Of a stretch of DNA of 64,000 bases, positions 16,519-48,565 are shown in pieces. How positions within the stretch are numbered: position 1 is the first letter of the stretch; every line of letters starts with the position of its first letter. The notes beneath the pieces are model-generated. The model searched no databases and was not told the DNA's origin. It saw nothing but the letters and a program-made list of their open reading frames with translations. Origin of the DNA: an uncultured bacterium. Its GTDB lineage: Bacteria > Omnitrophota > Omnitrophia > Omnitrophales > Aquincolibacteriaceae. Where the stretch lies: the NCBI GenBank assembly GCA_964508905.1, contig CAZDVO010000002.1, positions 46,330 through 110,329 of the forward strand, in the 5' to 3' direction. Position numbers and translations under genes: made by a program.

Positions 16519-16588
16519 ATCTCATATCCGTTTTTCTCCTTTGATCGTCCATGTTTTTAAAACTAAAACACCGGGATTGCCGTCCCAA

Positions 16589-37800: not shown

Positions 37801-40800
37801 AAGCATTCGACACGACTGCGGCGCCGGCAACCACGGCTGGACTTGTCGCGATAGCTACGGGCAAAGGTTTCGCCGCATCGTACAAACCCGTAAGCGAGAG
37901 GGTCGCGTCGGCATGCGGAGAGGCTATCGTTTGAGTTTTGGGGGCCAAATCAACAAGAAGGGGTTCAACATCGGCAAACTCAGCGGGAACATCCACCCCC
38001 ACCATTTTCCGGGCCATCACGTCAAGATCGTCCTCGACCATCTGCCGGTCTTTGTCATTCCGGATCGATTGACGGAGCCGAGTCGCGCGAGCGTGGAACT
38101 GAGCCCTGTCGTTATCGCTGCGAATAATGCCTTCCGTACGAACAACAAATTCATCAAAACCATCTAGAGCCGCGTCGCGTTCCTCTCCTACAGTCTCTGC
38201 CGCAACCTTCGAACGGATCTCTCCGACCAACCCCGCGGGCCCGGCAACGGAAGCTTTCACAGCATCCAAAGAACGAGACGCAATAGCCGGTTCAGGCTTT
38301 TCGGGTATGGCGATCTTGCCCTGAACGGGGGCGGTCTGGCCCGCCATCGCGGCGCTCAGGTCTTCAACCGGCGGAGGCGGAGCTCCCACGCCCGTTCCGG
38401 GAGCTGACAAAGCGGTTGCCACAACACCGACCAACTCATCTTCCTTGACTTCAGTCTTCTTTACTTCCTGAGGTTTCTCGACTTTCGAGGCCGCAACAAC
38501 GGCAGGAGTTTCCACGACTTGAGTTTGAATCTCCAGAACACCGCGCTCGCCACGGTCTAAAGCCGTGGGAAACGAGGTCGCTTCTTCGGGAACGGTCGCA
38601 ACAACAGGAGCCGTTACTACGGGCTCAGTCGCCGTTGGCACCGCTGCCACCGGAGATTTTGACGCCAACTTCAACGGCTTCACTGGCGCGGGCAACGCCG
38701 CTTTCACTTCCCGGTGGAAATAAGGACTTACCTCCCCCCGCTCCCGGATCAACTCAAATTTCGAGGGCGTTCTTCCCGTTTCCCGGTCCCAAGACGAATT
38801 CCATCCCTTCACAAAATACGCCTTCAAATGAGGGATTAAGGCTTCCGGAACCTCGATCTCATAGAGATGCGTCGTTCGGCCGGGAACCCACGTGAAATCC
38901 CCCGCCCGGTACTGCACAAAGATCCTGTAGGCCCCGTCCACCTTACGCCCCACATATGCCCCGGCATCGTACTGATCCGTAAAATTGATATCTTTCATGG
39001 CTTCGAGCAATCCTTCGCGATGCGCGCTCGAAAGCCCAAGCGACTCGACCCATTCTGTCACGGACTTCCATGCCTGCTTCTGTTCCGGGGTTTCCTCAAC
39101 CGCCTTGGAGGTTTCAGGTTTGGTCGCGATCGCGTGGATCAATTCCCGGGTCGCGACAGGCCCCGAACACACCCAGTTAAAAAGACCTTTCGCATTCCGG
39201 GAAACAAAACTCCCGAGGTCATGCGCGCTTTCTGCGACAAAACCCCGACGCAGTTCCGCCGGCACAGCCTGATGATCCTGATAAGCGCGATAATAGACTC
39301 CGATCGCATTCTCCAGACCATCGAGGTTCCGCGACAACCGCCGAAGATCTCCAAAAAGGGTATCGCGGAACCAGGAGTTGTGAGTATCCCGGATCACATT
39401 CTCCAGAGACATCCCCTGAGCAACAGCGTCCCGAATACCATCCAACACCAGGCCCTGGTCCCCAAGCGCCCGTTCATGGATCGAATTCCGGACAGCCACG
39501 CGCAATCCAGTTTCCGCAGCATCCAACGCCGCGATCTTCGCCTGAGCCGCCTCCGCCGCCGAAACGGGCTTCTCCGCAGCGGGAGTAGCTGTTTCAGAAG
39601 CCTTCGCCAGCGCCGCGAGGGCTGCCTCGTTTTCATTTTTTTCGATCAGCGCGATCTGTTCCGGAGTCCTGGCCTGCAGGACCGGCCCCATTTTTTGTTC
39701 AGCAGCTTCAAGACGTGCCTGGGTCTGGGCATTCATCGTTTGAACCATTTCAGACCCTGAGCTGACGCTTGCAGCAGCAACTCCAGCAAACATGCTGGCA
39801 GCGCTAAAAGCACCAAAGACCTTCGAGGTATCTTCACCCGGCTTATACGTATAAACAGCGGCTGTTTTACCAGTCAGTTTGGCATAGAGCGCATTCAACG
39901 CAAAGTAGGCCACAACGCACGCGGCCAAGATCAGCAAGATCGGCCAGGTGGCTGCGATCGCCGACACAAAGCTGAGTGAGCCAAAGGCCCATGTCCCGCC
40001 CACGATCCCGGCATAGATCACCGTGATCAAAGGCGCAACGATCATAGAAAGGATCATCGGCTCAAAAGAGGTCTGTTCCGTGCGATTGGTCAGCTTGCGG
40101 ATCGCCGACAGGAGCTTGGTGTCCTTCGCGTAAAGGTAGGTTTCTTTTTCCGCGTTTTTATCCGCAGCTTTTCCCTGCGCCCCATTCTGAAGCAGTGTAT
40201 TTCCAAAATAGAAGACGCTAAGCAACGCAGCAAGAGTCCCTAGCACAGCCCCCGCTGGCACACCGAGCGCGATGACCAAACCCGTCACAGCAACGATCCC
40301 GGCACCGATATAAGTACCCCTCTTGCCCGGTGTCCCGCCATAAAGTGTCTGGGCTTCCTGAAAGCTCGCCATATTTTGAGGAGAGGTGAACAGCTTTTTC
40401 TGAAGAACATTGCCGCCATACCAAACGCCGGCGAGAAGCGCCACGCCCAACACGCCAAAAACAAGAAGCGAGCCGGAAAGGATCGAGAAAAGAGCGACCG
40501 CCGCCCCCACAGCGATACCATTCTTAATGATCGCCGTTTTTTCAATGTTGATCTGTACGGGCTTAAAATGAACGGGCCGGCCGAGGATCGTGCCGAAAAA
40601 TTCCGGGAATGAGATCGACCACCAATCCGGCTGGATCGTCATCGTTTTTACTTCAACGGGGCGTCCCATCTTGGCGTAGTGGGCTTTCAGCGCCCGATGG
40701 AAGAAAAAGAGCCCTGCCGCAAAAACAACGGCGAGAACACCCATCACAAGAGCAAAAGCGGCGACCGACCCCAAAGCGACAACCGTTCCACCTGCCACGC

Positions 40801-43800
40801 CGACAAGGGCCAAGGCCCCCGGGATAGCAATGATCGCAAGCGAGGCCCCCAAAGCAACGGTCGTTACGTTAAAAAGAAGATTCAGCCCTGAAAAAATGAG
40901 ATGGCTGACAAGATCCACCGTATACTGTTCCAGCGGAGTTTCCCGGGCCGTATTCCACAACCCCTCATAGCTTTCTTTTAATTTCATCTTCGTAATATTG
41001 TCCGCCTGGATCCGCTTCAGCACGAACCTCTTGAAAAGCAGGATCCCGATAAAAATCGCGAACGCAGCCACAACGATCAGTCCAACTGTCGCCAGAGCTG
41101 CGACAGAAGCCGTCGTCACAGAACCCGTCCCGGCGAGCGCGACGATCTTCGTCAGAAAAGCCGGTACCCAAGCCTGGATCCCTGCCGCGATGCTACCGAC
41201 CGAAAGGGATTTGGTTAAAATGCCCGTAAAGATCCCGATCCAAACGGAAGAAATAGCCGTAAAACCGATCGCAATACGGGCGATCCTTCCAGGACGTAGC
41301 GGCGCACGAGGCGTAGGCATCTCTATTTTGGGGGCTTCCGAATCGACAAGGGCCTTTCTCGCGGCATTCGCGGCGGACGCCCTCACCTGACTTAAGGACA
41401 AGGCAAGCTCACGGGATACCCGGCTCCGGAAACCGCCTAATTTGGTCTGGTCGGACTTGGCAACAAGCCCGGATCCTAGAAAATATTCTTTCTGGATCTG
41501 ATCGGCCGTTGCGTTATAGTTGCTGCGCGCCACATCGACAGCATCCGGAAGCATCTTCCGCACGGCCGCCTCAGCCTGCGCCAAAAGAATGGCCTGAATG
41601 CGGGCATTCACAAATGCCTCGCCGGCAGCGTTCTTGGAACGGCTCAGACAAAGTTGCACGAAATCTTTCCTCACAGAATCACTCATCCCGGCAAGCAGTC
41701 CCTCTGGAAAAACAAGATCCAGGATGACAGCCGCAAGGGTCTCGTCATTCTTTGTTTCGATCGCTTCCTGCAAACGGGCAAGAGCTTCGCCCTCGTTTTT
41801 GATCTTGGAGGTTTTCCGTTCCTGGATATTCTTCAGGATCTGCTTTGCTTTCAGCCCTTTTGCTCCGGGAAGCAGATCCGTCCGCACAACGTGGAGCCAC
41901 GTCCTAAAGTTGGCGCTTTCGGTCAGCTCCCTTGCAGCGTTGACCGCTGCCGCCACCACCGCGTCATGGTCATCCCCTTCTTCGTCCATCGCATCAAAAG
42001 CTCCGATGCTCGCATAGGCCGCGTCATCCGTTTCTTCCTGCTGGGCGTCCGCCTGCATCTTTTCTGCCAGCATCGTCCTTTGTAATGCAAGAAGAGCACT
42101 TTCGATCCCGGTCAATCCGATCCCACGTTCAAAATTGCGCAGACGGCGAGGAGACCCGTCCTGGTTCGTCCGTCCTTCCCACCAGCGCTCCCACCAACCT
42201 TCCCCCTTCATACCCATTGCAAGTTCCGCCTCCCGGGCCAACTGCTCCGCGCTCGGATCCCAATCCTTGACCGAACCATCCGCATTCCTCGGAGCAGAGC
42301 GCAATCTGGCGATCAAGTCGAGCAGAGGCTTCCTGTTTTCTTCGGAAAGTTCACGGCCAAATTCTTCGAGGCTCGAAATGGCCAGATAAGTAAACACATG
42401 GCCAAAAGTCCCGCCGCGGCCGACACGGCCGATCAGCTGATCCATGATGATCTTCAGGGTATGGGGACGGGTCAGGTGCAGCGTCAAGCCTTTGATCAAA
42501 TTGCCATCGGCATCAATGATCTTTTCAAAGATCTCAACATTGATACCACGTGTCAGCGTCGCGTCGATCAAAAGAATATGCCCCTTACGACCCGCCCGCT
42601 CCAGCATCGCCTTGCGCACGCTGGGAGCATCCGAATCGCGGTAGATCTCAACGGTGACTTTCAACCCTTGCTCGCTGGCCGCTTTTTCAATAGCGTCCTT
42701 GATCCCGGCTTGATCTTTTGCGTCTGCGTCAACAAGATGGAAGCCTTCGACCTGGGAAGCGCTCAAAGCATTAGCCACAAGAGCCTTGTTCCTCTGCGCG
42801 ATCTCGCTTGCGTTCCTTTCCTCAACAGTCGCAAGGCCTTCTTCCCCGCCAAAAACTTTCGGCGGCGCGATCTCCTTCGTATAGTGGAAGAGGCCATCAA
42901 CGTTGTGCGTTTTCATTTTTCTTCCGCGCGCGGTCAGCTTGGCGTCCAACTCATCGCCTCCGGTCGCGGTCATCAGCACATTCCCGGCAAAACACGACAA
43001 CCCCATCATCTGAAGCATGCTAAGCCGGCTCGTCGTCCGCGATCCCTGAAGACGCGTAAGCCCCGCTTTAGCGCGCAACGCATTCTGTAAATCTCCCAAA
43101 TGCGTCCCTGCCATAGCATGCTCGTTACTGTCAAACGGGATCACATCCTCTTTCCCGTGAACCTGGCCCTTGATATAGAAACGGAAAACCCTTCTTCCCT
43201 GATACTCCGCGCCCGTTTCCGGATTATTTTTATCCGTGTAACATTCATGCGCGATCAGTTCCGCCTGGATCATCGCGATCCAGCGGTCGCGGCTGACAAA
43301 ACGAGGATCGATCGTCCCCGCTTTTACAAGTTCGTCATACCGCTTATTGGCCAGCGCTAACCCCGTGAAGAAGTTCAATTCGACTTTCGCATGCTGGTCA
43401 TTGATCACGTAGTTTTTGGTATTCACGTCCACCGACGGTTTGGAAGAATTCGCACGCAAGCCACGGGCCAGATCAGAAGCGTGACTTTCAGCCAGCAAGA
43501 TCGCATTCGCCTGAGCAATGACTCCGGCGGAAACAATCGCTTTGCTCGGATCCGTCACAATGTACTGGTCCGCTTCATCCAGGACGCTTGCAACCGTTCC
43601 CCGATTGGCCGCAGCATTGGCAAAACGGCGGCCGGCCCTGCCCTGGAAATAGAATTGATAGCCGTCGTAGCGAGAATAAACGACTTTAGCGTTCTTGATG
43701 ACGTAATCGATGGGATCTTCGTACGAATTATCGAATTTTCCAGTATGAGACGAAGCGACTTCCACAAGTTTCTCCTCATCTCCGGATTTGACCGCCTTCC

Positions 43801-46800
43801 ACGCGTGAGCAACGCCTTTCACATCAACCGTAAGCGTCACGAACATCCCGAGCTTGGCATCCCAGATCCAAGCGAATTTGTTTCCCGATTCGTCCGTAGT
43901 CAGATACCCCACGGTATGGGCCCCGGGAGCTTTCGAAAAAGCCGCCTGACATTCAATGGCGCCGGCAACAGCGTTCACATCACTATTCGTCTCAACAAAA
44001 GCCTTCCGGTCCGGTTCCGATGCAACCCAGGCATAAACCGTCGCGATGCCGATGATCGTTTTACCGGCGCCGGTTGCGGCATAGTTCAGGATATCTTCGA
44101 TCGCCGCCTTCTCGCCTTTTGGCGCACTCTTGATCTTGTCGCTATTGCCTTTCAATATTTCGATATTTGCCAAAACAGCTTCAACCTGTCCGAGGGTCGG
44201 ATTCTTGGATTTAGCTTCCAGCTTCGCAAGGCGTTCCGCTTCAGCCTGGCTCTTGCCTTCCGTCAGATATTTTTTAACCAATTGAGCCTGCTCATATTCC
44301 AAAGTCGCCGTTTGAATTCCAACGTAGATCTGTTCAACCAGCTTATTCCCTTTAACAAGAGGATGATTTTGATCGATCACCTGGTTCAGATCCCTGACAT
44401 CGCGGGCAACGGGTTTTGCGGATTCTTCGGTGGTGGGCGCAACTGCGGCGGGAGCTGTGACGGTCTGGCGAGCGGCATCGCGCTCCTGGATATTGCGGGC
44501 GACGATCTCAAGCCCTTCCTTTTTAAGCGCCATCGTATAGGTATTGACAGGGATATTGACACCCTGTTGTCGATATCCATCGATCAAAGCCAACTGAGCC
44601 GTGATCTTCGCTGAACTAAAACGAACCAGAATGTCCCGGCGAAGTTTCGCCTGATCTTCCCCCTCGAGGACCGTACCCAAAGCCTGAACTCTCGCATCGA
44701 GCGTCGCAAACGTTCCAGTTGCAGCATCAAATCCAAATCTCAAGAAACGGATATCCCCGGCAAAACCGCGTTTTTCTAACGCGTCGATCTTCGCCGCTAA
44801 ATCAGAACTTTTAAGAACTCGTTTATAAAATCCCTCGGCAACGGAAAGCTTCTCCGCAGGGGTCGAGAGGATCCGCGGAAGGTTCGCCGTAATTTCGGCA
44901 GGAATTCCATACTTCGTCGTCAAAAGTTGGGCGTTCTCCGTAGCCCGCTTCGCTTCAAGCTCCCTTTGAAATGCGTCGGCGGCAATGGGCCCCGCCTCAA
45001 CCGCCACACCGCCAGGCAGCTGCAGGGCAGAAGTCCCCTCCACCGGAGCTACCACGCGCGATTCAGAGCGGGCAGCCTTCTTGACCGAATCGGGAACCTG
45101 GTCGGCATCCATCATATAGAAGGAAAGGACCTGATCCGTGGCCGGCATTGAGATCGACTTCAACGTGCTACGCAACGACGCCGCGACTTCCGATGTCTTG
45201 ACCCCATTCCCCTTGGCATCCAGCGAGAAGGCCAGATACGGGGCATCCCTCTTCGAGCCATCCTCCATCGGGATCATGAGAACCGTGTGTCCCCCAACCT
45301 TCACGACCCGGGAAGGTTTGAACTTTTTGACAAAAACATCAAATTGAGCGCGGTAATCCGCGGGCAGCGTAGCCACCGCGGCCTGCAGCTCCTGATAAGC
45401 CTTCCCTTTATCCGCAGCTGACAGGATCGAGATCGCCGCGACGAGCGGGAAATAAAGCATGTCGTCGCCTTTAAAGGCCGAGAAGTCTACCTTCCGGCCG
45501 AGCATACGCCACGCCGCCAACTGGAACCGCGGATCGTTCAGCGTCACAGCCTTGGGCTGCAGGAACGCCTCGGAAAGAACTTTCTCGATCGGAAGCGGCG
45601 TTTCGCGCAGCGAGGCGTCATAAAGCGCGTTTTCCCTCTTTTTATCGATCGCCTTGGTGATGCGAGGGGCGACTACTATATAAGAAAGCCCCTTCTCCTG
45701 AAGATACTTCTCAATCCCAGGCGTATGGAAACCGCCTGTGACGATGGCGGATAACTTCTGCCCGGTGGCAAGGGTTTTCTCGACCGCTCGCTCGATCAGC
45801 ACCCGGTCGCGTTCGAGAGCGGCTTTATAAAAGCGCTCCACACGCGGCAGGTCCTGATCGAGGGTCTTCACTTGGGACGGCAATCCGTAGGTGAAGTGGT
45901 ATTGCTTCATGAGCGGTGCGAGAAAACTTACGAACGTTTCGGACTTGAACTCGTCCTGGTAGGTGTAATAGAACTCGGCGTCCTGCTTGGTCAGGCTGAA
46001 ATCGAACATCTTGCAATAGATGTCATGGATACGAAGGATATGGTCCAGCCGGATCTGCTCCTGCGTCATGAAAAGCTTGGCCTTGACGGTCTTTTCGAGA
46101 AATTCGATCTCGTCAAAGATCGAGACGTCGATCGCATCATAAAGCTTCATGTACTGGATATACGCCATGACGTTCGCATGCTTGACCGCGAGGTCTTCCC
46201 CTCCTGACTGGGCCACGCTGATGCCGCGGATCTCCTGCTCCAGATAACCGTAATAAGCAGCTCGCTTCATTTTCTTCATACGGAAGTGGACGGTATTCGT
46301 CAAGAACCGCGCCAGCTTCTCGCGCGGAAGGAAGCGCTTCAGATCATTGACAAGGGCCTCGGTGTCCTGATCGGCTTTATCAAAATCGACTTTCCTCTCA
46401 AGATCAACCAACTCGAGAAGCGAGTGCATGCCCGGATATTCATCCAAGGCGATCTGCTGTTTGCGGCCAAGGTCGACGAGATAACGGACATAGGCGACCA
46501 TTTCCGGGCCACCCTCCTGGAATGAAGCCCGGCGGCGGATCAGATCCCGCATTTCTTCAGAGAACACGAACCGTCCGACATCCTCCATGGCTTTTTTGAG
46601 TTCGACGAGAACCGCTTCGTCGCGATCCTTGAACTCAAGAGCTTCCACATACGCAGTACGGTTCTCTTCGTAGAGGTCCCGGTCTTCAACGCCATAAAGC
46701 ATCATAACCGGCTTATCCACAACCGCCAGATATTCCGGCCCCGTCAAACGGCCTTCACGGAGGAAGTAATCGGCCACGTTGCGGCGGGCTTCTTTGTTCG

Positions 46801-47230
46801 GGAAAAAAGAGAAAAGATCCGTGTTCAGTTCACCGGAAGCGCCCTCAAGGCTCACGAGCCCCAGCTGATGTTTTTCCGAAAAGTAGCGGAGGATATTGGC
46901 GATATTGCGTTGGGCTTCCTCGTTGATATGCGCATCCTGGACATGCAGAATGATCTGGTCCCCCGTTCCCTTGAATGTGGTCTTGACCGTACCGTAGCTG
47001 TCGGGAAGATCAGGGCGATCGATCAGCGCAAGAGGCGCCTGAGGGGCAACTGTTTCAAATGAGGAAAGGGCCTCCGGCTTGGGCGCTGCGGCATAGGCTT
47101 TATTAATACCGCCATCCCAGACGATCGAGGTAAAGGTGAACACACAGACCGTGAGAAATGCTACGGTCCTAAGCCATGGTTTGAAGCTGTGTGTTTGCCA
47201 ACTGATCATCGGATTGCCGTCCTCTCTCAC
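16871..47230 (-). CDS. Giant multidomain membrane protein, 10,119 aa (30.4 kb): N-terminal anchor plus conserved module, SecA-like DEAD ATPase, three TM blocks, coiled-coil/low-complexity regions, DUF218 domain, C-terminal unclassified domain
   Basis: A single uninterrupted ORF in the supplied track. The track start is GTG at 47230; an ATG with GAGAGGA RBS 10 nt upstream lies at 47209 (MISWQTHSFKPWLRTVAFLTVCVFTFTSIVW, a TM anchor). Stop is TAA at 16871. Domain motifs are detailed in the sub-features. Such size plus a SecA-like domain plus many TM segments corresponds to the reported features of Omnitrophota giant genes. Confidence 0.9.
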   Translation of the reverse strand: MREDGNPMISWQTHSFKPWLRTVAFLTVCVFTFTSIVWDGGINKAYAAAPKPEALSSFETVAPQAPLALIDRPDLPDSYGTVKTTFKGTGDQIILHVQDAHINEEAQRNIANILRYFSEKHQLGLVSLEGASGELNTDLFSFFPNKEARRNVADYFLREGRLTGPEYLAVVDKPVMMLYGVEDRDLYEENRTAYVEALEFKDRDEAVLVELKKAMEDVGRFVFSEEMRDLIRRRASFQEGGPEMVAYVRYLVDLGRKQQIALDEYPGMHSLLELVDLERKVDFDKADQDTEALVNDLKRFLPREKLARFLTNTVHFRMKKMKRAAYYGYLEQEIRGISVAQSGGEDLAVKHANVMAYIQYMKLYDAIDVSIFDEIEFLEKTVKAKLFMTQEQIRLDHILRIHDIYCKMFDFSLTKQDAEFYYTYQDEFKSETFVSFLAPLMKQYHFTYGLPSQVKTLDQDLPRVERFYKAALERDRVLIERAVEKTLATGQKLSAIVTGGFHTPGIEKYLQEKGLSYIVVAPRITKAIDKKRENALYDASLRETPLPIEKVLSEAFLQPKAVTLNDPRFQLAAWRMLGRKVDFSAFKGDDMLYFPLVAAISILSAADKGKAYQELQAAVATLPADYRAQFDVFVKKFKPSRVVKVGGHTVLMIPMEDGSKRDAPYLAFSLDAKGNGVKTSEVAASLRSTLKSISMPATDQVLSFYMMDADQVPDSVKKAARSESRVVAPVEGTSALQLPGGVAVEAGPIAADAFQRELEAKRATENAQLLTTKYGIPAEITANLPRILSTPAEKLSVAEGFYKRVLKSSDLAAKIDALEKRGFAGDIRFLRFGFDAATGTFATLDARVQALGTVLEGEDQAKLRRDILVRFSSAKITAQLALIDGYRQQGVNIPVNTYTMALKKEGLEIVARNIQERDAARQTVTAPAAVAPTTEESAKPVARDVRDLNQVIDQNHPLVKGNKLVEQIYVGIQTATLEYEQAQLVKKYLTEGKSQAEAERLAKLEAKSKNPTLGQVEAVLANIEILKGNSDKIKSAPKGEKAAIEDILNYAATGAGKTIIGIATVYAWVASEPDRKAFVETNSDVNAVAGAIECQAAFSKAPGAHTVGYLTTDESGNKFAWIWDAKLGMFVTLTVDVKGVAHAWKAVKSGDEEKLVEVASSHTGKFDNSYEDPIDYVIKNAKVVYSRYDGYQFYFQGRAGRRFANAAANRGTVASVLDEADQYIVTDPSKAIVSAGVIAQANAILLAESHASDLARGLRANSSKPSVDVNTKNYVINDQHAKVELNFFTGLALANKRYDELVKAGTIDPRFVSRDRWIAMIQAELIAHECYTDKNNPETGAEYQGRRVFRFYIKGQVHGKEDVIPFDSNEHAMAGTHLGDLQNALRAKAGLTRLQGSRTTSRLSMLQMMGLSCFAGNVLMTATGGDELDAKLTARGRKMKTHNVDGLFHYTKEIAPPKVFGGEEGLATVEERNASEIAQRNKALVANALSASQVEGFHLVDADAKDQAGIKDAIEKAASEQGLKVTVEIYRDSDAPSVRKAMLERAGRKGHILLIDATLTRGINVEIFEKIIDADGNLIKGLTLHLTRPHTLKIIMDQLIGRVGRGGTFGHVFTYLAISSLEEFGRELSEENRKPLLDLIARLRSAPRNADGSVKDWDPSAEQLAREAELAMGMKGEGWWERWWEGRTNQDGSPRRLRNFERGIGLTGIESALLALQRTMLAEKMQADAQQEETDDAAYASIGAFDAMDEEGDDHDAVVAAAVNAARELTESANFRTWLHVVRTDLLPGAKGLKAKQILKNIQERKTSKIKNEGEALARLQEAIETKNDETLAAVILDLVFPEGLLAGMSDSVRKDFVQLCLSRSKNAAGEAFVNARIQAILLAQAEAAVRKMLPDAVDVARSNYNATADQIQKEYFLGSGLVAKSDQTKLGGFRSRVSRELALSLSQVRASAANAARKALVDSEAPKIEMPTPRAPLRPGRIARIAIGFTAISSVWIGIFTGILTKSLSVGSIAAGIQAWVPAFLTKIVALAGTGSVTTASVAALATVGLIVVAAFAIFIGILLFKRFVLKRIQADNITKMKLKESYEGLWNTARETPLEQYTVDLVSHLIFSGLNLLFNVTTVALGASLAIIAIPGALALVGVAGGTVVALGSVAAFALVMGVLAVVFAAGLFFFHRALKAHYAKMGRPVEVKTMTIQPDWWSISFPEFFGTILGRPVHFKPVQINIEKTAIIKNGIAVGAAVALFSILSGSLLVFGVLGVALLAGVWYGGNVLQKKLFTSPQNMASFQEAQTLYGGTPGKRGTYIGAGIVAVTGLVIALGVPAGAVLGTLAALLSVFYFGNTLLQNGAQGKAADKNAEKETYLYAKDTKLLSAIRKLTNRTEQTSFEPMILSMIVAPLITVIYAGIVGGTWAFGSLSFVSAIAATWPILLILAACVVAYFALNALYAKLTGKTAAVYTYKPGEDTSKVFGAFSAASMFAGVAAASVSSGSEMVQTMNAQTQARLEAAEQKMGPVLQARTPEQIALIEKNENEAALAALAKASETATPAAEKPVSAAEAAQAKIAALDAAETGLRVAVRNSIHERALGDQGLVLDGIRDAVAQGMSLENVIRDTHNSWFRDTLFGDLRRLSRNLDGLENAIGVYYRAYQDHQAVPAELRRGFVAESAHDLGSFVSRNAKGLFNWVCSGPVATRELIHAIATKPETSKAVEETPEQKQAWKSVTEWVESLGLSSAHREGLLEAMKDINFTDQYDAGAYVGRKVDGAYRIFVQYRAGDFTWVPGRTTHLYEIEVPEALIPHLKAYFVKGWNSSWDRETGRTPSKFELIRERGEVSPYFHREVKAALPAPVKPLKLASKSPVAAVPTATEPVVTAPVVATVPEEATSFPTALDRGERGVLEIQTQVVETPAVVAASKVEKPQEVKKTEVKEDELVGVVATALSAPGTGVGAPPPPVEDLSAAMAGQTAPVQGKIAIPEKPEPAIASRSLDAVKASVAGPAGLVGEIRSKVAAETVGEERDAALDGFDEFVVRTEGIIRSDNDRAQFHARATRLRQSIRNDKDRQMVEDDLDVMARKMVGVDVPAEFADVEPLLVDLAPKTQTIASPHADATLSLTGLYDAAKPLPVAIATSPAVVAGAAVVSNAFKPAGEAAIAPMEPLLADISTSGTVGLGETTAKEAADQAAENFETLMSKGASTKTEDAVIEGKVTPEVPSGFNVGMALFDETYQRPSVLALDRDADLAAQYSSDYKKFNAFVGAGFNAVLTSHKNQTKTTSTSTEEKTGEREVDIGDGSGLTQLEDYTYTETSTTTTVSSSNRYNALEGSVSAGLRTGSDILKQDQRLAAEEGQKRRDSRIAFVQLIKQKVFSLEEIASINARLAKISQTKARYHGILQKRQQALGAYHASVPVLKRQLDDSLKNIEIEEDALIKARNYHARHLVGLMGKDVSKWMANSDYQTFVKTMDFEKIRSLGLYAERADAGAKALLEQMKYYIQRREAELDTVPGARWSLTIPEVNLALGTESGLTAQLNIFALETAWSSRDYQLDKKNQADVIAAKTNVMHRLADMMHDGISKLYELRSLQQHVKNLEAQAQVDVLVADALLNSRSRESQRDMDPISAADKYLLLTDQIESAKGELQKLQDAEKDLLTTLDAIQGQMTALAENDQKLAGEVGFDVTGRQFREAIARGHSQWTTELNDQADAVYQSYIGEAAVAKDEEGQSLRKAAFAHEMLKNSGLLVASRYKALADKLDQVYQEWVRLSAYLNAGFGFSAKNPGATSFVVNGGIGLDVLVLSFTQSAAEYSKAAAEGRSASYLRDVTNRAQQQLQQIIEQLGFLEGQIAGLQRNVQTSQKMLEEVAHKVAIRLAERDHRVDASAHRILAEIQQGNVGELTKLGVDSETVRLLAEVQKGNVDSVAALQPRLAPLIEEKLWVELAGTAGKLLEQKIALSATKDNRAKAQLLLNKLSSSDLHPVAIDIARAEVETHLNEPDYQAELKKLTNPYFRYLDANGVFLDTAEADLESMTKIIENFLPGMDEVLADKEKAFAKEKSDFDREQAAFNAKKPSVFKNKQEEKKWADRAADLAEKAQAVAKREQAVKQLKGTRERFSNARYKAMYLSKVAALNAEGKMAKTDQRDAMRDLLEDLVGATEGYLTSEYLLEKMFNLWSYESRDSWYEGIRQLLDLIGPEGTSVLGYTGRITAIHSAFLNVEKAWSLNKEPLNIRGGFSYQKSGGTSSGKSTTLGFGGIFSHLKRLFAGPSDDARRNAAFLLAEGSRGIMDRAKAQVKENQDTLALRGKLGVLDSRIKLYEDIKQQFVEWRDRYEPTPGALRSIVSRLRSVLGNDRTTDEIYALNVEQLDARIRADANSIRELEASLLSRGFSPRQMRSGAFYTASANKQNESAALIRDQLSEIGRESYSAQIASLNTLVGTMLKQSTFGTSPYTSAASLAQSPFYRDFGVVNQFLNAPSGLPGSDGNRFAVVNFTTSSILGTPKKTFMLMMQYKESEAGTDKKGSELAVSEQTRGVVAAISHMRVMNRFKKILAAKTLAPQGLEDILGTARVEHGVKGESLSRLSRIESMETGNAAIEAIGKLWSEVKGLSSDEEKRQKMIEGIDQLLRIENASIKDDLKALKKTAGEADISFEVVEGVDLSKAGNLEALQSDEATRANLRTLLNKEFVKMLGQDRLGSFVKFGFSHAPYQSDLSEGEPYLGVGATYTLYDSHLSAIKKFWSNREGIEKLFAKQANQDLRNELEDFLADREDLEKEVAKRRESLESAAESYHLALQRSRQFGYVDAEIDLAFRYMNELDAYESAVYAYWNASRKLIESAAANGIKLDYTAGKKDMVELLADAIPSWLEDETEGDDIEAKYLASEKPVLPVIKGTGTRSATFAIDEGLEKETPTKNARTNQALDKLIAALGSKVPVTGLLSPEEKAGLELEQANARKLLTRIFERVAGRYGRKDVPAWIEEIAAAYKDLEDNKAFDRTGFMEVGLGEETWGNLFGQCFMIGPEGSKLLQDSGVDFNKLAFALFVNDLGHISMTRGEPGDRARITESIARDLPDAMKALERYRHRPQDSYSLRSPVEGAEALTLVLYRAFGGESVKDKNGNPLGFDQILNDAEHRRAFVRVAPEFNLNNVFSGVVGHEINKDTWVTGWQDAAKYLSISLGRYDKGTGEVIPREIPVDDPQYMAYIMAQNIANILAHPRPVLPAELSANATPQEREAYNAAKAKVSDHDKLMEQSAYLTARFAFKISQSEHLRPKEEDIKDTVYLRLKALAGQKQEDYGVDPDTKRLVLIKDVRSWLSNPPQEMSVAEHSRLMKALPEILKSTRSGGIKDPVTGGVATLESIQIRMKAVREAVMEGLFNSMAVSYVNDVLYGAGHDAGENRDKWLAKSIEDTIDPKTGEVIKGRLSLTEDRLRLENELRGKPELVKSISELAHKPEGYKATPREKYNDDRNIRGIVSGLAMEILGETGDEIDPAIKQYMGAIQKEIDLLGEELTRVSDEKKPEIQGRLDAKKAELQRYEDANAKRVADYKLFNSLPEDKKIQHLVELWQIMSDLRPSATALLGTLSNDNPNDVSMLRLWAASVQGDIQPKYQPGAGGFEDAEHWQKWQDTPKKERLERMQKRLHIMKVLKDRFAEKGITIKLKDSKYTAVPERGLGVGSLMSSAMEYLGEIDPAEKIDKAIEALQKDIKALEAEAERAVPETSVQEEPAKVSEPVVPLKSEPVKTSAWDKFTDILAVASSFAGNLVFGLNAYGDTVPALATQGLVGASAKAVEAAVSNKPNLPQSGETRGLKGESRVPSAQLREKRAELANLQQIRNKIKADQDLFLGKTGDKRYMSVNGQIAEGRIARIVGLAVIMKDIRFAVEQLVGPLNDGSPSDMGMLRSMATFIQGDIQSQYMHAAGGFDNEDDWAETEKKTPEKRQELLMGRLEVASRMNDALKNLGVVFDLKGERSAEMLRKGEDIGFLLSVSQALISGDVLLGEMFDEKGNLKDSDKVWMLFAVMRTPQAKTMLDNYLTETNRDEYLAKSLVSKIGDRTSLAKELAVFLGDSGRIDRSKTIAENLKEADLILSRREKIYKVSRADGMSPEISVKSDDLGAEDEALEDLKAKSGLGEALTPEIYYSLVSKVLDSRKVAGQSLKGRFPVAFWMLPSEKRQLMDKIAEISEIPYALNDAKTWVAGFLLTPGGIDLKNTQPVIKEVSRRVEIEMFLQAANMLYRTQALNPGELAAFSRVVMLEEQKILREQNERNAATEQPVSEAVRKTQEEEKLKPMLRTGHLLKLYGLAEAALNGKTINGNPYEGANDRITLVKDQMNKYGRMLNGDAWKPVDEEWVKANHKGWATEKIFGKISRILEAQELGAPHFEMTPESTPDYLYKWIKDAAVMDAVIYQSQGRFPPNEVLDALIQSERDGSDVIPVYKTETSLIQNLPQWSRLEKGRNNYLLQKYGSQQFWDADLRVLGEVTGADGRPLTVELSDTSRVPVDLNDVRWVRSAYRTVYRTDIGDDDLGIPAAKEVLRTLWFVEKIARLDHQLKNITFDGKNVAVSGEAISAIRDEFMIGSEKARNAFRRAVYGASKDAALLDKTEVQAQFKVYMNAWAEEFIRMKAELQTLSVKENAASREDLEMSRKNIQSERKTRVAEYAKKYAGKNYEPVHKDAMKEVETSWAEISSKVKGLTPFRSTEKAVVASQMIRNGYTAREILLMDHYILPELLKGHGLEGKDIDRLKDSDLKDKNLKAKDLKAKLRYRSREILERAEAGLLFAVNRNAGGVKTTLETLDTEALAGTVKYQLKDFEGVQTNENVIREKFSELNVYSDDVLKREREIKRIAESVLDRDVSTGSLSAWFAAASNLKTAVLVSGAKDPDMEKILYEADSLWNLGLAASPQRVQDKSSMDALAVINGTIGWIFDRGTDSGPYAATPTGSKRDAATPAGSNRATLESEPTREKMLKALDAAAFDDAREKIERRIEEMLKSGALTPLDLKELNGLALQRYQSLVDVNAKAKKDGLQSKDLPKPHEVSPLTILLVLDMENPDPVKRIGLFELLFPKVKEEGKDLLRADAQVNGHYAGASRRSDELLIDKYAPVPDSAMTHLISGLRIPAFQVHDYRFPGYGVSGVMLSHLFNFDGQESPVSKALGIKDSKAPLWNISWIAFVLAAFFAMKNYLKRRFQSPVYGRQNGLKRKKTEIVERQDALLSKREELIKEQQKRRNAVSRSEARSELSKMTDAEIAAELVTVEHQFKALEQDLASVKQAMTAAKAVPGVGSATPVTTARYDVAHSPQTLRTIEKGSKLSLMRLATYEFLRDFLAFLMIGWSLAALSPYAVAAVPIFVALYVVWHVPLFKQWAYNPIAYLTAGWKPLTFLLAMAGFVAAVAKPAILTAIGGFLVAQPAFIVAMVVWIAMITLSHIDKSGGVMYDTPTEKEEKDFSDKKVNEVMNRARLIFDMPGYADYRKEKNRIIKLQENAKWLDLAGDSEGAGKVLKQVESIEAAILNGRVETGMYGDLTAAEKAKKAKEVKAVAETIVDLKADPTLQYKDINGYMSGHMPKGKKHIMFEAWRLDSREINETVEAMVRQLIGNNFKSQRSILLANGPEVKGSYAETKGAKEPGGGTMEQFFQKMQARMELYWELLEYTDKADKSVHPGYERLQVIYRGAGRKPVANVLLMGAFTGYGEDGLAGRKLGQISNRGVDINKLHYQVTIFGRTILLGSSYVLEQVETRGTDKHGNPLPANVLKLHLPFDNIPFFNGMAKPGEGNAFVPYSQSLRDDPQMLGQYLPAVKTDEVTGKDIFEPQVLHTTTLDGGNYVSAGIMLFLIRMLSRRPDVGMAQLNTGYETDHSTAFWEMGAKIHAAGFWTIIFNSMVAGLVRMFGKYTILTMVAAEMVRPRPGLPFGAYFTRVLVFSGFLFRQLNRLLEESSIRLSLEANGDPKLLARLQAKGPLNGLLALEVLKSRALFKGLVATDQAILAKILPGDPEAALLARARVSPVARDMLLERAGYLQSIVDDNNAVRQAAFIVQAGFADIDAVKKEAERLKAENENLKPEEWLELNKKLLLPAEGGATLDVPHLIEAASKRVSQRDMLMAITEALRAVASKDNKDLFSEAARQDPNLLKDAKFKATHKRMLRDRAGFVEEDFALGASNVPALFAVLQANGEVNNAILASLGIKRTAAGAVDFSGVDRKKLADAVTKILNDKDQFKVFYVKFLAQDSAIADRLAPEVKGLLERAKAQDAVVGLRDIVAEENAIKQAEDMAAAGYTDLQGVKAELTKVDKATPALNDSEWEALNRSLMAALYDGYIEKRQTSSLDRLLEPAMAKTVTELENILKEKDPKTLMKLLSRAGVTNKTELRKKIAEEKGKVEGFKAGNLKIEDFEMVLLNRKLLGVLCGAKKDDAKVATISIFTQEDLEDAMHAFSGLPSKYNGEDEMVTYTPTDTYVQAEYAAEHKEELKDQKEELERKHANNPRAAHREVKGRPFDADAIRVLPKEIWDDVAETGAPLPGVKTALALVAGREGIIDDKLPSMPAQNPQSDKWQIINDEPTDELYERGVFALTPQTDFFDSFPRDGLNIGHKWFATLAIMALAAFVPGFIGVVGVYAAMVQTLVVLSLLIGMPFLGVLFNGLVAPVGFKVDFLRPLTVWNWFRVKGRFLEQAFYDMAIIAAEKVISGANYVNRVLNVFDWYKRKVRRHDFIKYGEVGTADPAPAGIDLSKAPNFSKNLQDPYVRRGLMVGFSFLAVLFGIMFKVGLLSLVAVISVWGVGLVGAAVGFLVALFVFIIPGVKADIVDGKLLKSIAGSKAPNMQDAKLKFFEVFGANELYKSKDLGLMKKFGLMLRFYGYAVVKTAPASLRLVKDFSFFKNRNLFQKNNPKPLFELEWYRSYMNHLILNSVALIAVCAFLPFLVQFVPLFWLMLFSVMALFFVAAPLVNWATGLVIEQKEGDVGSARRAVKIALGLFGVAAIVFTIFLFNSVAMQMALSVFFEKVMANSFFVAASGNLVEGMRGPLSPLAQGNAPLLMFVQTFLLGGTVLAIILSLIFAVWWFTFYAPAAKLKAEAQKVAKPENALAAKKEKVTLRGWIKDRITAVKAFGVNIKTFVASVRTEKKKADQEKIKRKWAGINLPAWGIGFMVVFQKIEAAKREKILKNLLGSIALPVLVLVPVTAVGHVLGWSVVAAIVGFVIVAGLVIGSKQSAKYIRMITRIAAIGGIGFSIGGWIGFAIASGVAGILMLIARVVPESVAPGKESSVPLHGIGSTGEGNVKKSETSEPKMVQPRSESRTPGKDVQLNARSEMRLAETVAELDPKVLRGYYDRMFTETEAQGSISEAAIMAHKNYFDEKGAQRYGTTVPVLMRVPQGAVQNNLWKMTERIIQTAQLTDADVVRTGELHSTIFAFVTTYNGVIDMAPYQSAEIQDVIRGVTGRIMPFRVTYKGLTIAKDGTVTAQGYVDEPSNLGGLRSGLHQAFTDNPHAEDKSSGHIIHAKLFRLQHSVTGEKFKVLMDEVRANRDTEFGTVAVNSVELMRADLKPTQKPGEETLSLIQTFPLGWSELQDNAPQTILSAIGTRRSESREIAAVRSVMVPKMQQLVDDLSKGDDLQTKPADGFLVLGNPDLRTFTGFAATWKALKTQLPIVVTGGRGRGYLPLRKAAMEHYGLNETSDVVALWQTEADIMAYILTAEGVPAGMITKEARARNTEANLRNSAEILREKIPASVENPRIYMVTSPMLTARVKATAQAFWWQTGSSTENFQVAALRVYEPNVEKMADEQLMLDAIYLAGLPEDISGYPHVNRGNEIKGLGDMLARAVKNPASAGRELAQVPAEGETLTKAIREANAKMLVIHPKASALLAELERLSDYTPLPVATETEAPAKTETKRSELRPAVTAEAARQAAIEDELKKLGTPAPEMAGQQKPALSPVAQRMVAGIASSQAMRFDLARTVEHVKALGIENEFTQVISNFAAEPKMQAALGLDADVIVGAEAPKYVFQDGFNQAGLESFAKSLKSTDNIYLSIAVKNEADEASAKAFLTQYGFDMTKCAVVIASIEEAFDAGLKQAGRNLSRATATRISGASQLDAKTYGELLAGSLGLEIVVVTDREIAGIARTLTALQVVEAAIEAARSIAIAA
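17980..18440 (-). other. DUF218 (YdcF/ElyC/SanA-like) domain near C-terminus of the 10,119-aa protein
   Basis: GFLVLGNPDLRTFTGFAATWKALKTQLPIVVTGGRGRG...ETSDVVALWQTEADIMAYILTAEGVPAGMITKEARARNTEANLRNSAEILREKIP...RIYMVTSPMLTARVKATAQAF. The same family is present in the 2,830-aa paralogue. Confidence 0.5.
19550..21560 (-). other. Transmembrane block 3 (C-terminal multi-helix region)
   Basis: WFATLAIMALAAFVPGFIGVVGVYAAMVQTLVVLSLLIGMPFLGVLFNGLV...MVGFSFLAVLFGIMFKVGLLSLVAVISVWGVGLVGAAVGFLVALFVFIIPGV...ALPVLVLVPVTAVGHVLGWSVVAAIVGFVIVAGLVIG...IGGIGFSIGGWIGFAIASGVAGILMLIARV. Confidence 0.6.
24990..25800 (-). other. Transmembrane block 2
   Basis: LWNISWIAFVLAAFFAMKNYL, then after a ~110-aa charged spacer FLAFLMIGWSLAALSPYAVAAVPIFVALYVVWHVPLF...LTFLLAMAGFVAAVAKPAILTAIGGFLVAQPAFIVAMVVWIAMITL. 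Confidence 0.55.
26415..26474 (-). repeat. In-frame 30-nt tandem duplication inside giant ORF
   Basis: acttccggccggcgtggccgcatcacgttt followed by acttccggtcggcgtggccgcataaggtcc. Encodes AATPTGSKRD / AATPAGSNRA in ...PYAATPTGSKRDAATPAGSNRATLE. Confidence 0.7.
39780..41300 (-). other. Transmembrane block 1 (about 12-14 predicted hydrophobic helices)
   Basis: IARIAIGFTAISSVWIGIFTGIL...LIVVAAFAIFIGILLF...LAIIAIPGALALVGVAGGTVVALGSVAAFALVMGVLAVVFAAGLFFF...ILLILAACVVAYFALNAL: long runs of hydrophobic residues spaced by short loops. Confidence 0.6.
42300..44200 (-). other. SecA-like DEAD-box motor ATPase domain (NBD1/NBD2-like) embedded in giant protein
   Basis: Walker A: NYAATGAGKTIIGIATVYAWVA (SecA: [20 protein letters not shown]), DNA ~44041-44080. 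DEAD: ASVLDEADQYIVTDPSKAIVSAG (SecA: [20 protein letters not shown]). MTGT region: LMTATGGDELD. NBD2: ILLIDATLTRGINVEI (SecA: VTIATNMAGRGTDI). GLTLHLTRPHTLKIIMDQLIGRVGRGGTFGHVFTYL (SecA: [36 protein letters not shown]), DNA ~42410-42490. Confidence 0.75.
45550..47230 (-). other. N-terminal conserved module (paralogous to 14900-16518)
   Basis: See alignment in the 14900-16518 feature. The GTxH-like (ILHVQDAH) and GGFHTPG motifs are faintly reminiscent of the TraB/GumN/ChaN family. Confidence 0.55.
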
Positions 47231-47620
47231 AGTCGATAAAGTTATTCCAAGTACTACAAATTCGCCTATCTGATCGGGTATAAAACTTAGTTTAAAGCCT
47301 TATAAACCTCAATAGAAATATACCCGATTACCCCATGAAGGTCAAGAAAACCTAAAAAATTTTTAATGACGTAACTTATTGTCATACTACAACTTGTATC
47401 GCGACAACAAAATTATTTGAATTTAAGCAAACTCATTAGAACAATTCATAGCAATAAAATCAAAAAAAATTACGTCTGTATTTGCATATAAAATTTTATC
47501 TGGTTAAGAAGTTTTGATGCGTTAATAAAAAGTTTTTTAAAATAAATGCCTTTTAACTATTGTTTTGATGCCCCTACATAGAGGTGACGATGAGAAGAAA
47601 TGAGATCAAAAAAAAAGAGC
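47231..47620. promoter_or_regulatory. Strongly AT-rich island immediately upstream of the giant gene (putative promoter / nucleoid-protein binding region)
   Basis: Composition drops from ~60% GC to roughly 25-30% GC over ~390 bp (e.g. aaaattatttgaatttaagcaaactcattagaacaattcatagcaataaaatcaaaaaaaattacg), with A- and T-tracts including a 9-A run at 47616-47624. No convincing ORF. Confidence 0.45.
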
Positions 47621-47867
47621 ACTCCCCTATTCGGAGAATCAACACCACGGGAGAAATATTTCATGACAGAAGGACAGGTGATGCCCATGAATATCTCGAG
47701 GATAAAAAAAAGAGAGCGGACGAATGATAAAGCCGGCGCCACACGAAACATCAAAATCCCGACGGAACGGATCAGACACCTACATCGAAAAGAGATATCA
47801 CGACCGCTAAAACCGCCGGGATATTTTGGACCTACCCTGACTTTTATTTATTTCTAAATGGTCGTCA

Positions 47868-47918: not shown

Positions 47919-48053
47919 AAACTACCGTTATGGAACAGAAATGAAAAGTTTGGACTGGCCCATTTAACCTTAGATTTTTCGAAAGAGAAATGGACCCGCA
48001 CTTGCCTCCGATTCATTTTCAGAACGGCGACAAGTGCTGGCCCAGTTTCCAAT

Positions 48054-48091
48054 AAAAAAAGCCCTTCGGAATTACCCGAAGGGCTTTTTTA
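48054..48091. terminator. Bidirectional rho-independent terminator hairpin
   Basis: aaaaaaa-gcccttcgg-aattac-ccgaagggc-tttttt: 9-bp GC-rich stem, 6-nt loop, with an A-run 5' and a T-run 3', so functional in either orientation. Located downstream of the tRNA/hydrolase transcription unit and upstream of the giant-gene AT-rich island. Confidence 0.7.
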
Positions 48092-48099
48092 ATGATAAC

Positions 48100-48117
48100 T
48101 GGACCTGAGGAGAGTCG
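48100..48117 (-). repeat. 18-bp perfect direct repeat of the tRNA-Ala 3' end (tggacctgaggagagtcg), possible att-site remnant
   Basis: Identical 18-mer at 48100-48117 and at 48258-48275 (the 3' acceptor/T-arm of the tRNA), same orientation, 140 bp apart. Confidence 0.6.
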
Positions 48118-48257
48118 GCGCCCTCCATTCGCTTCGCTCATTACGGGTCGGCCACCCGCCCTTAAAACATGACCTTCGTCATATTTTAAAGCAGGGCTCC
48201 CTTCGACTCTCCCCCAATCAAAAAAATATCCCGGAGGCAAAAGCTCCCGGGATATTT

Positions 48258-48330
48258 TGGACCTGAGGAGAGTCGAACTCCTGACCTCTGCAATGCGAAT
48301 GCAGCGCTCTACCAGCTGAGCTACAGGCCC
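48258..48330 (-). tRNA. tRNA-Ala (anticodon CGC)
   Basis: rc = GGGCCTGTAGCTCAGCTGGTAGAGCGCTGCATTCGCATTGCAGAGGTCAGGAGTTCGACTCTCCTCAGGTCCA, 73 nt. Cloverleaf folds by hand: 7-bp acceptor with G3:U70 (Ala identity), D-arm GCTC/GAGC, anticodon stem CTGCA/TGCAG with loop TTCGCAT (anticodon CGC), T-arm AGGAG-TTCGACT-CTCCT, discriminator A. CCA not encoded. Confidence 0.9.
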
Positions 48331-48359
48331 TTGTCCATTATTTCTTTTCTTAACGCCTG

Positions 48360-48565
48360 ACAAGGCCAGTCCTTTAGGACAGGCCCATGTCTTTATTTCA
48401 TTTTTGGACGGCAACATGGACCAGTCCAATTACCCGTCTACTTCTCAATTGAGAATTGGACAGGCCCTTGATTCTTATTTCATTGCTTCAAAGTTTTCAA
48501 GGACCAGCCCAATCAACCTTTAATCCTCAGAAGAGGATTGGACAGGCCCCCATCAAGAATGGCGG
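48360..48565. repeat. BIME-like cluster of REP-like elements in alternating orientation (motif ATTGGACAGGCCC / GGACCAGYCCAAT every ~40 bp)
   Basis: ggacaggccc at 48377, ggaccagtccaat at 48419, attggacaggccc at 48458, ggaccagcccaat at 48501, attggacaggccc at 48550. Pairs form 13-bp inverted arms around 23-24-nt loops (e.g. ggaccagtccaatt-acccgtctacttctcaattgag-aattggacaggccc). Related copies at 47868-47918, 47950 and 58888-59017. Confidence 0.55.

Follow-up and report, generated by a model that had tools for sequence, protein, structure and literature searches.

Giant genes occupy a striking share of the small genomes of Omnitrophota, and their products are almost wholly unannotated. Surveys of these genes describe poorly conserved open reading frames (ORFs), whose N-terminal regions mostly lack identifiable domains save C39 or S8 peptidases and whose points of cleavage are reported as unknown (bioRxiv 10.1101/2023.11.21.568195; PMC10066038). 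Are giant proteins cut, and by what? This question is raised by a 64,000-nucleotide stretch of DNA, hereafter the window, from an uncultured bacterium of the Omnitrophota (Aquincolibacteriaceae; GenBank assembly GCA_964508905.1, contig CAZDVO010000002.1, positions 46,330 to 110,329 of the forward strand). The window contains two co-oriented giant ORFs on its minus strand, separated by a spacer of about 280–350 bp, namely, gene A (16871..47230; uninterrupted, 10,119 amino acids (aa)) and gene B (8024..16588; 2,854 aa). All features of A and B given below lie on the minus strand.

A preliminary description of the locus had claimed that the two products share an N-terminal module of about 540 aa as a paralogue pair, that the rest of the two proteins is unrelated, that a common head with variable bodies suggests domain shuffling, and that the module weakly recalls the TraB/GumN/ChaN fold. 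In this study, the shared module (the head) was followed through its family, predicted structure, conserved residues and genomic surroundings. The explanation that we favour overall, with slightly more confidence than doubt, is that the head is an exported Tiki-like hydrolase, whose preferred substrate would be its own long protein.

The head domain and its family

The heads of A and B are homologous, a conclusion that we regard as virtually certain. BLASTP aligned A residues 14–537 with B residues 23–537 at 24% identity (E 1e-37), and the motifs quoted in the preliminary description are present in both proteins. It is the non-helical core that shows the greatest similarity, which excludes coiled coils or low complexity as its source. 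Homologues of A begin with MISWQTH, matching A M8, and the library protein P0057 is 100% identical to the B sequence from M22 on, which points to ATG 47209 in A and ATG 16525 in B (leaving 2,833 aa) as the probable true starts. Each start is followed by a signal-peptide-like segment, read from the sequence. In A, this segment covers residues 8–47 (47090..47209) and consists of a basic n-region, a hydrophobic stretch with a Kyte-Doolittle peak at residues 19–37, and AYA; in B, it covers residues 22–49 (16442..16525) and reads MRSFSKTLKAISLVTIFCFVSTQISWGA. The folded head domain, of some 470 residues, follows after a variable linker and spans approximately A 74–540 and B 79–540.

The window holds exactly two head copies, A and B, and the pair is not a recent tandem duplicate. 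The B head shows 24–27% identity to all other heads examined, and A takes only the 29th place among its 144 relatives; the two heads are thus ancient paralogues of different subfamilies standing side by side. The claim of a paralogue pair stands as regards homology.

The head was then sought beyond the window. A profile built from 14 trimmed heads (alignment A2) was searched exhaustively against 1.84 billion cluster representatives and returned 9,623 representatives at E<=1e-3, of which 6,490 reach E<=1e-30. A genomic scan of one genome per GTDB species confirmed 313 relatives, and all named genomes among the 80 loci for which details were listed belong to Omnitrophota, as do the closest relatives of A and B, all of which are Candidatus Omnitrophota metagenome-assembled genomes. 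Ten assemblies appear two or three times among the loci listed, and a co-oriented second copy stands just upstream in L006, L016, L037, L042 and L043. The family is very large and apparently specific to Omnitrophota. None of the 146 full-length head matches among the sequences fetched from the family carries two heads, and the head starts at residue 40–79 in 134 of them. Across the family, the N-termini present a basic stretch and then a hydrophobic stretch of about 17–20 residues, often with an A-x-A-like end, and can be described as signal-peptide-like. The proteins range from about 400 aa (fragments) up to 7,853 aa.

These data bear directly on the reading that A and B resemble each other without wider meaning, through composition, coiled coils, a recent local duplication or an error of assembly. 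About 55% of the module is an alpha-helical insert, Ala, Leu, Glu and Lys abound in both proteins, and the identity is only 24%, all of which would suit such a reading. However, the invariant motifs lie in strands and loops, thousands of independent homologues occur in other assemblies, the two heads come from different subfamilies, and the order of giant gene, B-type head, body with cytidylate kinase (Cmk), HEAT and DUF218 domains and NAD synthase gene recurs in another genome. Family size, the A–B alignment statistics and the distinct subfamilies refute the artefact, and we give it practically no credence.

Two further groups of heads were distinguished. Clade 2 comprises 81 proteins with QDAHCN heads, mainly within P0064–P0161, in which the head is followed by its own conserved extension, VCPNITKDVxTPYIQILTNQRTP. 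The clade 2 bodies contain the recurring 5-mers HPGRG, RPSGN/T and HELAH/HEKAH, the last of which is HExxH-like, and this pattern suggests a conserved metalloprotease-like module downstream of these heads. A-like heads have another conserved C-terminal extension, ending in L-N-D-P-R-F-Q-L-A at about residues 563–572 (extension A ~541–575; window ~45506–45610), some 25 residues past the profile end, which is present in neither B nor the QDAHCN clade. A search with a profile of heads from which the insertion had been deleted in silico (alignment A3) recovered standalone secreted 'mini-heads' of about 335 aa (P0178, P0181, P0182, P0184, P0185, P0186 and P0188; loci L083, L085, L086 and L087), which keep every conserved head motif and have a short helical insertion. 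The mini-head gene directly follows a gene for a FUR-family regulator in L083 and L086 (two of three loci), among housekeeping genes (TIM, RpiB, RecJ, PNP and HAD).

Fold and candidate active site

The head is composed of a core in two halves and a large insertion. In A, the N-terminal half of the Tiki-like core covers residues 74–198 (46637..47011), as delimited by conservation over the 146 heads and by modelled strands and helices; an all-helical, lid-like insertion specific to the family covers residues 199–454 (45869..46636) inside the core; and the C-terminal half covers residues 455–540 (45611..45868), with a helix-strand-helix-strand order in the model. The head of B (residues 79–540; 14969..16354) is divided likewise by alignment to A, into an N-terminal core half (15974–16354), the insertion (15221–15973) and a C-terminal core half (14969–15220). 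An AlphaFold2 (AF2) model of the A head based on alignment A2 reached a pLDDT of 88.5 and a pTM of 0.77, and placed strands and helices at residues 79–198, the all-helical insertion at about 200–442, a long helix at 455–488 and a strand-helix-strand unit at 492–521. Five main strands alternate with helices to form a parallel-beta-sheet core. The defining features of the Tiki superfamily were taken from the RRSP paper (PMC6254334), which describes an alpha/beta fold with a mainly parallel central beta-sheet between helices; the alpha/beta core and mainly parallel sheet of the head model agree with it.

Sequence profiles point in the same direction. When the insertion was deleted, 17 of 30 heads matched Pfam Cofac_haem_bdg (ChaN), with a best E of 2.6e-4 and all below the gathering score of 27.7 bits, and one DUF5694 match and one TraB_PrgY_gumN match were also obtained, both below threshold. 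An independent model of a mini-head (~335 aa, pLDDT 87) returned the same seven structures, ChaN first. The earlier hint of a TraB/GumN/ChaN fold is supported by these sub-threshold matches, and we consider it likely from the models that the head adopts the Tiki-superfamily fold. It is well supported that the head is a divergent, previously unannotated branch of the Tiki/TraB/ChaN/erythromycin-esterase superfamily, with a helical lid-like insertion of about 255 residues.

Several results weigh against this assignment and against the overall explanation built upon it. The Foldseek comparison of the head with the Protein Data Bank (PDB) was not significant, with EreC as the best match (E 0.067), and the margin of the Tiki fold match over unrelated Rossmann-like folds is small. 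Whole-head searches of Pfam and NCBIfam gave nothing for A and only weak matches for B (ChaN, Cofac_haem_bdg, E 0.028; DUF5694, E 0.11). Searches of the A2 and A3 profiles against all PDB sequences with hmmsearch gave chance matches only (amphiphysin, MtsA), and no significant profile match to PF04187, PF01963, PF05139 or PF18950 was found. On the same side of the balance, the correspondence of head residues to catalytic residues of RRSP and Bcr135 is inferred from order, spacing and secondary-structure position in the model; the first acidic residue is Asp, not Glu, in the head, and in B it is Ser105 (16274–16276), where 97% of heads have Asp; and the family matched best by sequence, ChaN, is a known haem binder rather than an enzyme.

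The core residues are highly conserved over the 146 heads, which diverge down to 20% mutual identity. In the N-terminal half, D99 is conserved in 97% and H101 in 99% of heads (D99-x-H101, 46928–46936), E129 and G130 in 100% (E129, 46844–46846), and G180 and Y187 in 100% and E182 in 99% (within 46637..47011). In the C-terminal half, R474 of the pair R474-D475 (45809–45811), G499, G500 and H502 of the motif T-G-G-F-H (H502, 45725–45727), and P522 are invariant. The positions were checked by codon, and the corresponding residues of B, placed by hmmalign and a codon check, are H107, E135, R476 and H504. The catalytic set of the Tiki superfamily comprises two His and two Glu together with a basic residue that is also conserved, arranged as acid-x-His, Glu, Arg, GxxH; E3900, H3902, E3930, R4001 and H4030 of RRSP are each essential, and the His-Glu pair of Bcr135 is H85/E113 (PMC6254334). 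The spacing of 28 from H101 to E129 equals that of Bcr135 H85/E113 and RRSP H3902/E3930, the spacing of 28 from R474 to H502 compares with 29 in RRSP (R4001/H4030), and the head acid stands two residues before the first His, as does RRSP E3900. The candidate catalytic residues are located at the C-terminal ends of strands in the AF2 model. By this pattern the head appears to have an intact hydrolase-type residue set, and it is more likely than not an active hydrolase. Since Ser105 replaces Asp in B and the equivalent Glu is essential in RRSP (PMC6254334), the activity of the B head may be altered or reduced.

Another reading takes the head to be no enzyme. Under that reading, the head would be a ChaN-like haem- or metal-binding module, or a handle for export, membrane insertion or surface assembly, similar to the conserved trafficking domains at the N-terminus of polymorphic toxins. 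By sequence, the haem-binding ChaN family is indeed the closest, mini-heads directly follow a FUR-family gene in two of three loci, a strict N-terminal position and high conservation regardless of the body would fit a biogenesis handle, the first acidic residue is lost in B, and PMT provides a precedent of a Tiki fold devoid of activity (PMC6254334). However, the 99–100% conservation of H101, E129, R474 and H502 in heads down to 20% identical is the pattern of an active site and matches essential RRSP residues (PMC6254334), and the FUR-adjacent loci are closely related, so they do not constitute independent evidence. A non-enzymatic head is considered unlikely.

Bodies, linker motif and proposed role of the head

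The bodies behind the head diverge rapidly. Among 123 members with at least 500 residues after the head, 10% of ordered body pairs share any similarity (E<=1e-6) and 1.2% share half. P0019 is 81% identical to A in the head and 38% identical over the next 2,000 residues, and in species-representative genomes whose heads are 50–83% identical to A (about 80% in the closest), most of the similarity seen by tblastn is lost beyond residue ~940, while the ORFs run on for more than 3,800 codons. The head also occurs on modest proteins and as a gene of its own, for example P0017 (972 aa, followed by a 1,336-aa gene) and P0006 (691 aa, followed by 1,160-aa and 571-aa genes).

A relative of gene B has its head in an ORF of its own. 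In L088 (GCA_040767405.1, contig JAXGOQ010000001.1, 10001–21950) and L089 (ENA ERZ3460576), an 8,710-aa gene precedes a 649-aa B-type head ORF and then a body with cytidylate kinase, CofD, NTP_transf_3 and guanylate kinase domains; HEAT and DUF218 were recorded in L088 only, and in L089 the NAD synthase gene comes next after the body, the gene order of the window. One in-frame TAG is all that terminates the head ORF, after which the body resumes in the same frame. The L088 relative lacks an equivalent of the B block 620–1743. The body divergence, the split head ORF and the missing block together support a common head with variable bodies and domain shuffling, and the modular family that had been suggested is thus borne out by 9,623 representatives, one head per protein, body pairs that are seldom alike and the loss of similarity past residue ~940. 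Members of the family are long modular envelope proteins, with the head at the N-terminus or in a separate ORF just upstream and with fast-diverging bodies.

The gene upstream of the B-like gene in L084 is unlike the A C-terminus; the synteny therefore amounts to a large gene upstream, not to orthology. An IS200/IS605-type Y1 transposase gene lies between the upstream large gene and the B-like gene in L084 (3212–3883) and on two further ENA/NCBI contigs, and the B-like gene beside it is itself split into a 344-aa ORF and longer ORFs.

The bodies of A and B are only nearly unrelated, contrary to the preliminary description, since two elements are common to both. The first is a DUF218-like module towards the C-terminal part of each protein, at A residues 9559–9747 (17990..18556; Pfam DUF218 E 1.4e-12, phmmer E 3.4e-7) and B residues 1980–2163 (10100..10651; BLASTP, Pfam and phmmer), with a BLASTP identity of 25% (E 4e-5) and a Pfam DUF218 match in both. 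This DUF218/YdcF-like module adjoins a 2H phosphoesterase-like (AKAP7 2'5' RNA ligase-like) domain in A and cytidylate kinase in B. A search of the other listed family members, many of them truncated, revealed none of the DUF218, cytidylate kinase or 2H domains, so a conserved 'tail' could not be demonstrated. Pfam gave no informative domains on seven other head-bearing proteins of 1,200–1,650 aa.

The second common element is a pentapeptide, R-[SA]-E-[VLMAIS]-R, referred to as RSExR. Its frequency was compared with the expectation from shuffled sequences. Seven copies occur in B (577, 621, 1024, 1356, 1764, 2279 and 2585) against 0.10 expected, and six in A (721, 7217, 9271, 9286, 9561 and 9870) against 0.15. 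The first copies after the head are RSESR at A 721–725 (45056..45070) and RSEIR at B 577–581 (14846..14860). RSESR or RSEAR stands at several domain boundaries of B, where the copy at 1764 precedes the cytidylate kinase domain by 18 residues; in A, the copy at 9271 precedes the 2H-like domain and that at 9561 precedes DUF218. When all 5-mers in the bodies of 74 A-like (clade 1) members were counted without bias and ranked by number of proteins, RSEVR, RSELR, RSEMR and RSEAR took the first four places and RSEIR the eighth. With A and B removed, clade 1 contains 121 motifs against 4.7 expected, in 50 of 72 proteins, and the motif occurs within 350 residues after the head in 40 of the 59 clade 1 proteins of at least 900 aa. 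No copy was found inside a head with a first, narrower pattern. Across the genomic loci, ORFs of at least 1,200 aa contain 42.8 motifs per 100,000 aa, compared with 4.4 in other ORF segments. The flanks are not conserved, the positions drift between orthologues and the codons vary synonymously, also between copies within A; the motif is thus a short linear motif at the protein level, and a nucleotide-level origin through recombination or an RNA signal was rejected because of the synonymous codons. A literature search for RSELR returned only unrelated alginate-lyase papers. RSExR is a candidate processing or recognition site at module boundaries.

These elements can be combined as follows. The head would be exported to the outer face of the cytoplasmic membrane, as are TraB/PrgY and Tiki, and would act there as a hydrolase, most probably a site-specific peptidase. 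Its preferred substrate would be the long protein itself, from which it might free itself, or which it might help to cut, at R-S-E-(V/L/M/A/I/S)-R linkers in the manner of an N-terminal leader protease. The strict N-terminal position, the conservation regardless of the body, the co-occurrence of head clade and motif and the gene split at a motif favour such a role. In its fullest form, an exported Tiki-like endopeptidase would cut the giant product of a self-processing polyprotein at RSExR into modules, and motif-bounded cassettes would be gained, lost or split in evolution. The cassette idea is supported by the L088 locus, in which B 620–1743, bounded in B by the motifs at 621 and 1764, is absent and the head ORF ends as RAELR-Q-D-stop, two residues past a motif. 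Self-processing at RSExR is put forward tentatively and is somewhat unlikely, and we judge the complete leader-protease scenario to be rather unlikely.

Further observations stand beside those already listed on the unfavourable side. Export of the head is inferred from hydrophobicity alone. A crude transmembrane (TM) map suggests motifs on both sides of the membrane, in which case an exported head could not reach all of them. The 81 clade 2 proteins contain 2 motifs against 2.4 expected, without enrichment, and half of the listed family thus keeps a head without the motif; motif cleavage is therefore not the universal task of the head. Only one split gene ends at the motif, and the idea that every split head ORF stops at a motif was rejected, since only P0215 ends there and other short head ORFs do not.

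Another explanation is a head that is an exported Tiki/TraB-type hydrolase acting on external targets, such as host or prey peptides, esters, envelope components or, as in PrgY, signalling peptides, and that leaves its own polyprotein untouched. The body would then provide adhesion, anchoring or further activities, and RSExR would serve another purpose or enzyme. Fold and catalytic pattern are the same as in the favoured explanation, and TraB/PrgY and Tiki are likewise built as a succession of signal peptide, extracytoplasmic Tiki domain and later TM segments. PrgY has been described as a membrane-localised peptidase with a presumed extracellular action on a specific peptide (PMC7117660), and host surfaces have been suggested as the place where Omnitrophota giant proteins act (PMC10066038; bioRxiv 10.1101/2023.11.21.568195). 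The conservation of clade 2 heads without the motif and the apparent presence of motifs on both membrane sides also accord with external targets. However, an enzyme acting in trans would have no evident reason to occur once per protein and always at the N-terminus, irrespective of the body behind it, or to be conserved so much better than those modules that presumably contact the host, and no substrate clue was found. External targets in place of the own chain are considered somewhat unlikely.

If true, the leader-protease reading would supply the missing cleavage points of Omnitrophota giants and would explain how tiny cells can use genes of more than 10,000 residues. The head is in any case a conserved, foldable, enzyme-like N-terminal domain of a family of about 10^4 sequence clusters, and a marker with which giant genes can be found, classified and delimited in fragmented metagenomes. 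Four or five candidate active-site residues are named for mutation, and the five-residue linker motif, strongly enriched and placed at module boundaries, offers a candidate processing site that can be tested, so that the question of whether giant proteins are cut, and by what, becomes a direct experiment.

The remaining features of the locus were also recorded. A has about 25 TM-like hydrophobic segments in three clusters (1983–2489, 7146–7406 and 8577–9217), and Pfam gave no match across its first ~6,800 aa. B has five TM-like segments and Pfam matches to HEAT repeats, cytidylate kinase (1782–1995) and DUF218 (2018–2148); its HEAT repeats and its enzyme domains of a usually cytoplasmic kind, namely cytidylate kinase and an HD-like region noticed on visual inspection, sit between TM-like segments. 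Comparison of A and of B with itself (BLASTP, E<=1e-5) revealed no internal repeats. The genes on either side are ordinary, with NAD synthase downstream of B and, upstream of A, tRNA-Ala, an S33 hydrolase, an AMP-binding enzyme, a thiolase, a patatin/cNMP protein, YajQ, a SPOR protein and LepA. A scan of the A–B spacer for promoters and terminators found nothing above chance, and Rfam found one tRNA and no other structured RNA in the window. This tRNA-Ala(CGC) (48258–48330, minus strand) is located some 1 kb upstream of A; partial copies of its 3' end occur at 48100–48117 (18/18 nt) and again at 47789–47833 (78% of 45 nt, including the hairpin after the tRNA), and these repeats look like scars of integration at the tRNA. 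The rest of the leader before A is AT-rich (GC 0.47 in 46001–48000 against ~0.53 elsewhere), and a 136-aa ORF at 48019..48429 that overlaps the tRNA is probably spurious.

Comparison with known systems

Erythromycin-esterase (Ere) enzymes are soluble cytoplasmic proteins of about 400 aa, and their structures contain a helical lid domain inserted in the core. They include EreA/B/C and B. cereus Bcr135/136 (PDB 6XCQ, 2RAD, 3B55 and 2QGM), and EreC is the best Foldseek match of the head. Ere-type enzymes and the head have in common a parallel-sheet core, a His after strand 1 that is followed by a Glu at a distance of 28 residues (Bcr135 H85/E113, PMC6254334) and another His towards the end of the chain (EreC H289, catalytic according to the title of 6XCQ). 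Unlike these enzymes, to which it has no significant sequence similarity, the head lies behind a signal-peptide-like segment and is fused to bodies of several thousand residues.

Proteins of the TraB/PrgY/Tiki group have an extracytoplasmic domain followed by TM segments, a topology that head proteins would share. In the latter, signal-peptide-like N-termini and TM-like segments further downstream were read by hydrophobicity and would tether the protein to the membrane. The group (PF01963; 8BQS chain DQ) has the order acid-x-His, Glu, Arg, GxxH in common with the head, with one sub-threshold Pfam match. The head differs in its first motif (Q-D-A-H, not G-x-x-H), in the helical insertion of about 255 residues, which is specific to its family, and in thousands of residues of variable modules downstream in place of a short TM anchor; the Pfam gathering score is not reached. 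ChaN (Cofac_haem_bdg, PF04187; 2G5G) is the best match at the sequence level, and both proteins appear to be exported, 2G5G having been deposited as a putative lipoprotein. ChaN is a haem-binding lipoprotein of about 255 aa, whereas the head appears to keep the full hydrolase-type residue set, and no lipobox Cys was found at the end of the hydrophobic segment in A, B or the family N-termini inspected, so that the ChaN-type lipoprotein signal is absent from them.

RRSP (DUF5) of MARTX toxins (5W6L) and HopBA1 (5T09) are Tiki-fold domains within, or delivered by, very large multi-module proteins, as the head is likely to be. RRSP is a site-specific endopeptidase, and D99, H101, E129, R474 and H502 of the head follow the same order with nearly the same spacing (PMC6254334). 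However, RRSP is an internal effector that is freed into the host cytosol by a separate cysteine protease domain, whereas the head is always the first domain; the head also lacks the four-helix bundle for membrane localisation and has no sequence similarity to RRSP.

Within the phylum, archaeovorin-type proteins are defined by more than 30,000 aa, numerous TM regions and a divergent SecA_DEAD domain (West-Roberts et al., bioRxiv 10.1101/2023.11.21.568195). A and B have TM-like clusters, but they comprise 10,119 and 2,854 aa and gave no Pfam match to SecA_DEAD, C39 or S8 at E<=0.01. Neither the head nor RSExR is described in a 2026 preprint on complete Omnitrophota genomes (bioRxiv 10.64898/2026.06.07.730766) or in the two surveys (bioRxiv 10.1101/2023.11.21.568195; PMC10066038), and the literature searched contained no link of Omnitrophota with Tiki, TraB or ChaN. 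The Omnitrophota giants ('archaeovorins' and the dockerin type; bioRxiv 10.1101/2023.11.21.568195; Seymour et al., PMC10066038) and A and B agree in phylum, many TM segments, few annotated domains and rapid divergence, and B resembles them further in carrying metabolic-type enzyme domains, such as cytidylate kinase, within a membrane-spanning giant. The Tiki/TraB/ChaN/Ere superfamily thereby gains a large and unusual branch, distinguished by a signal peptide, a helical mega-insert and giant fusion partners.

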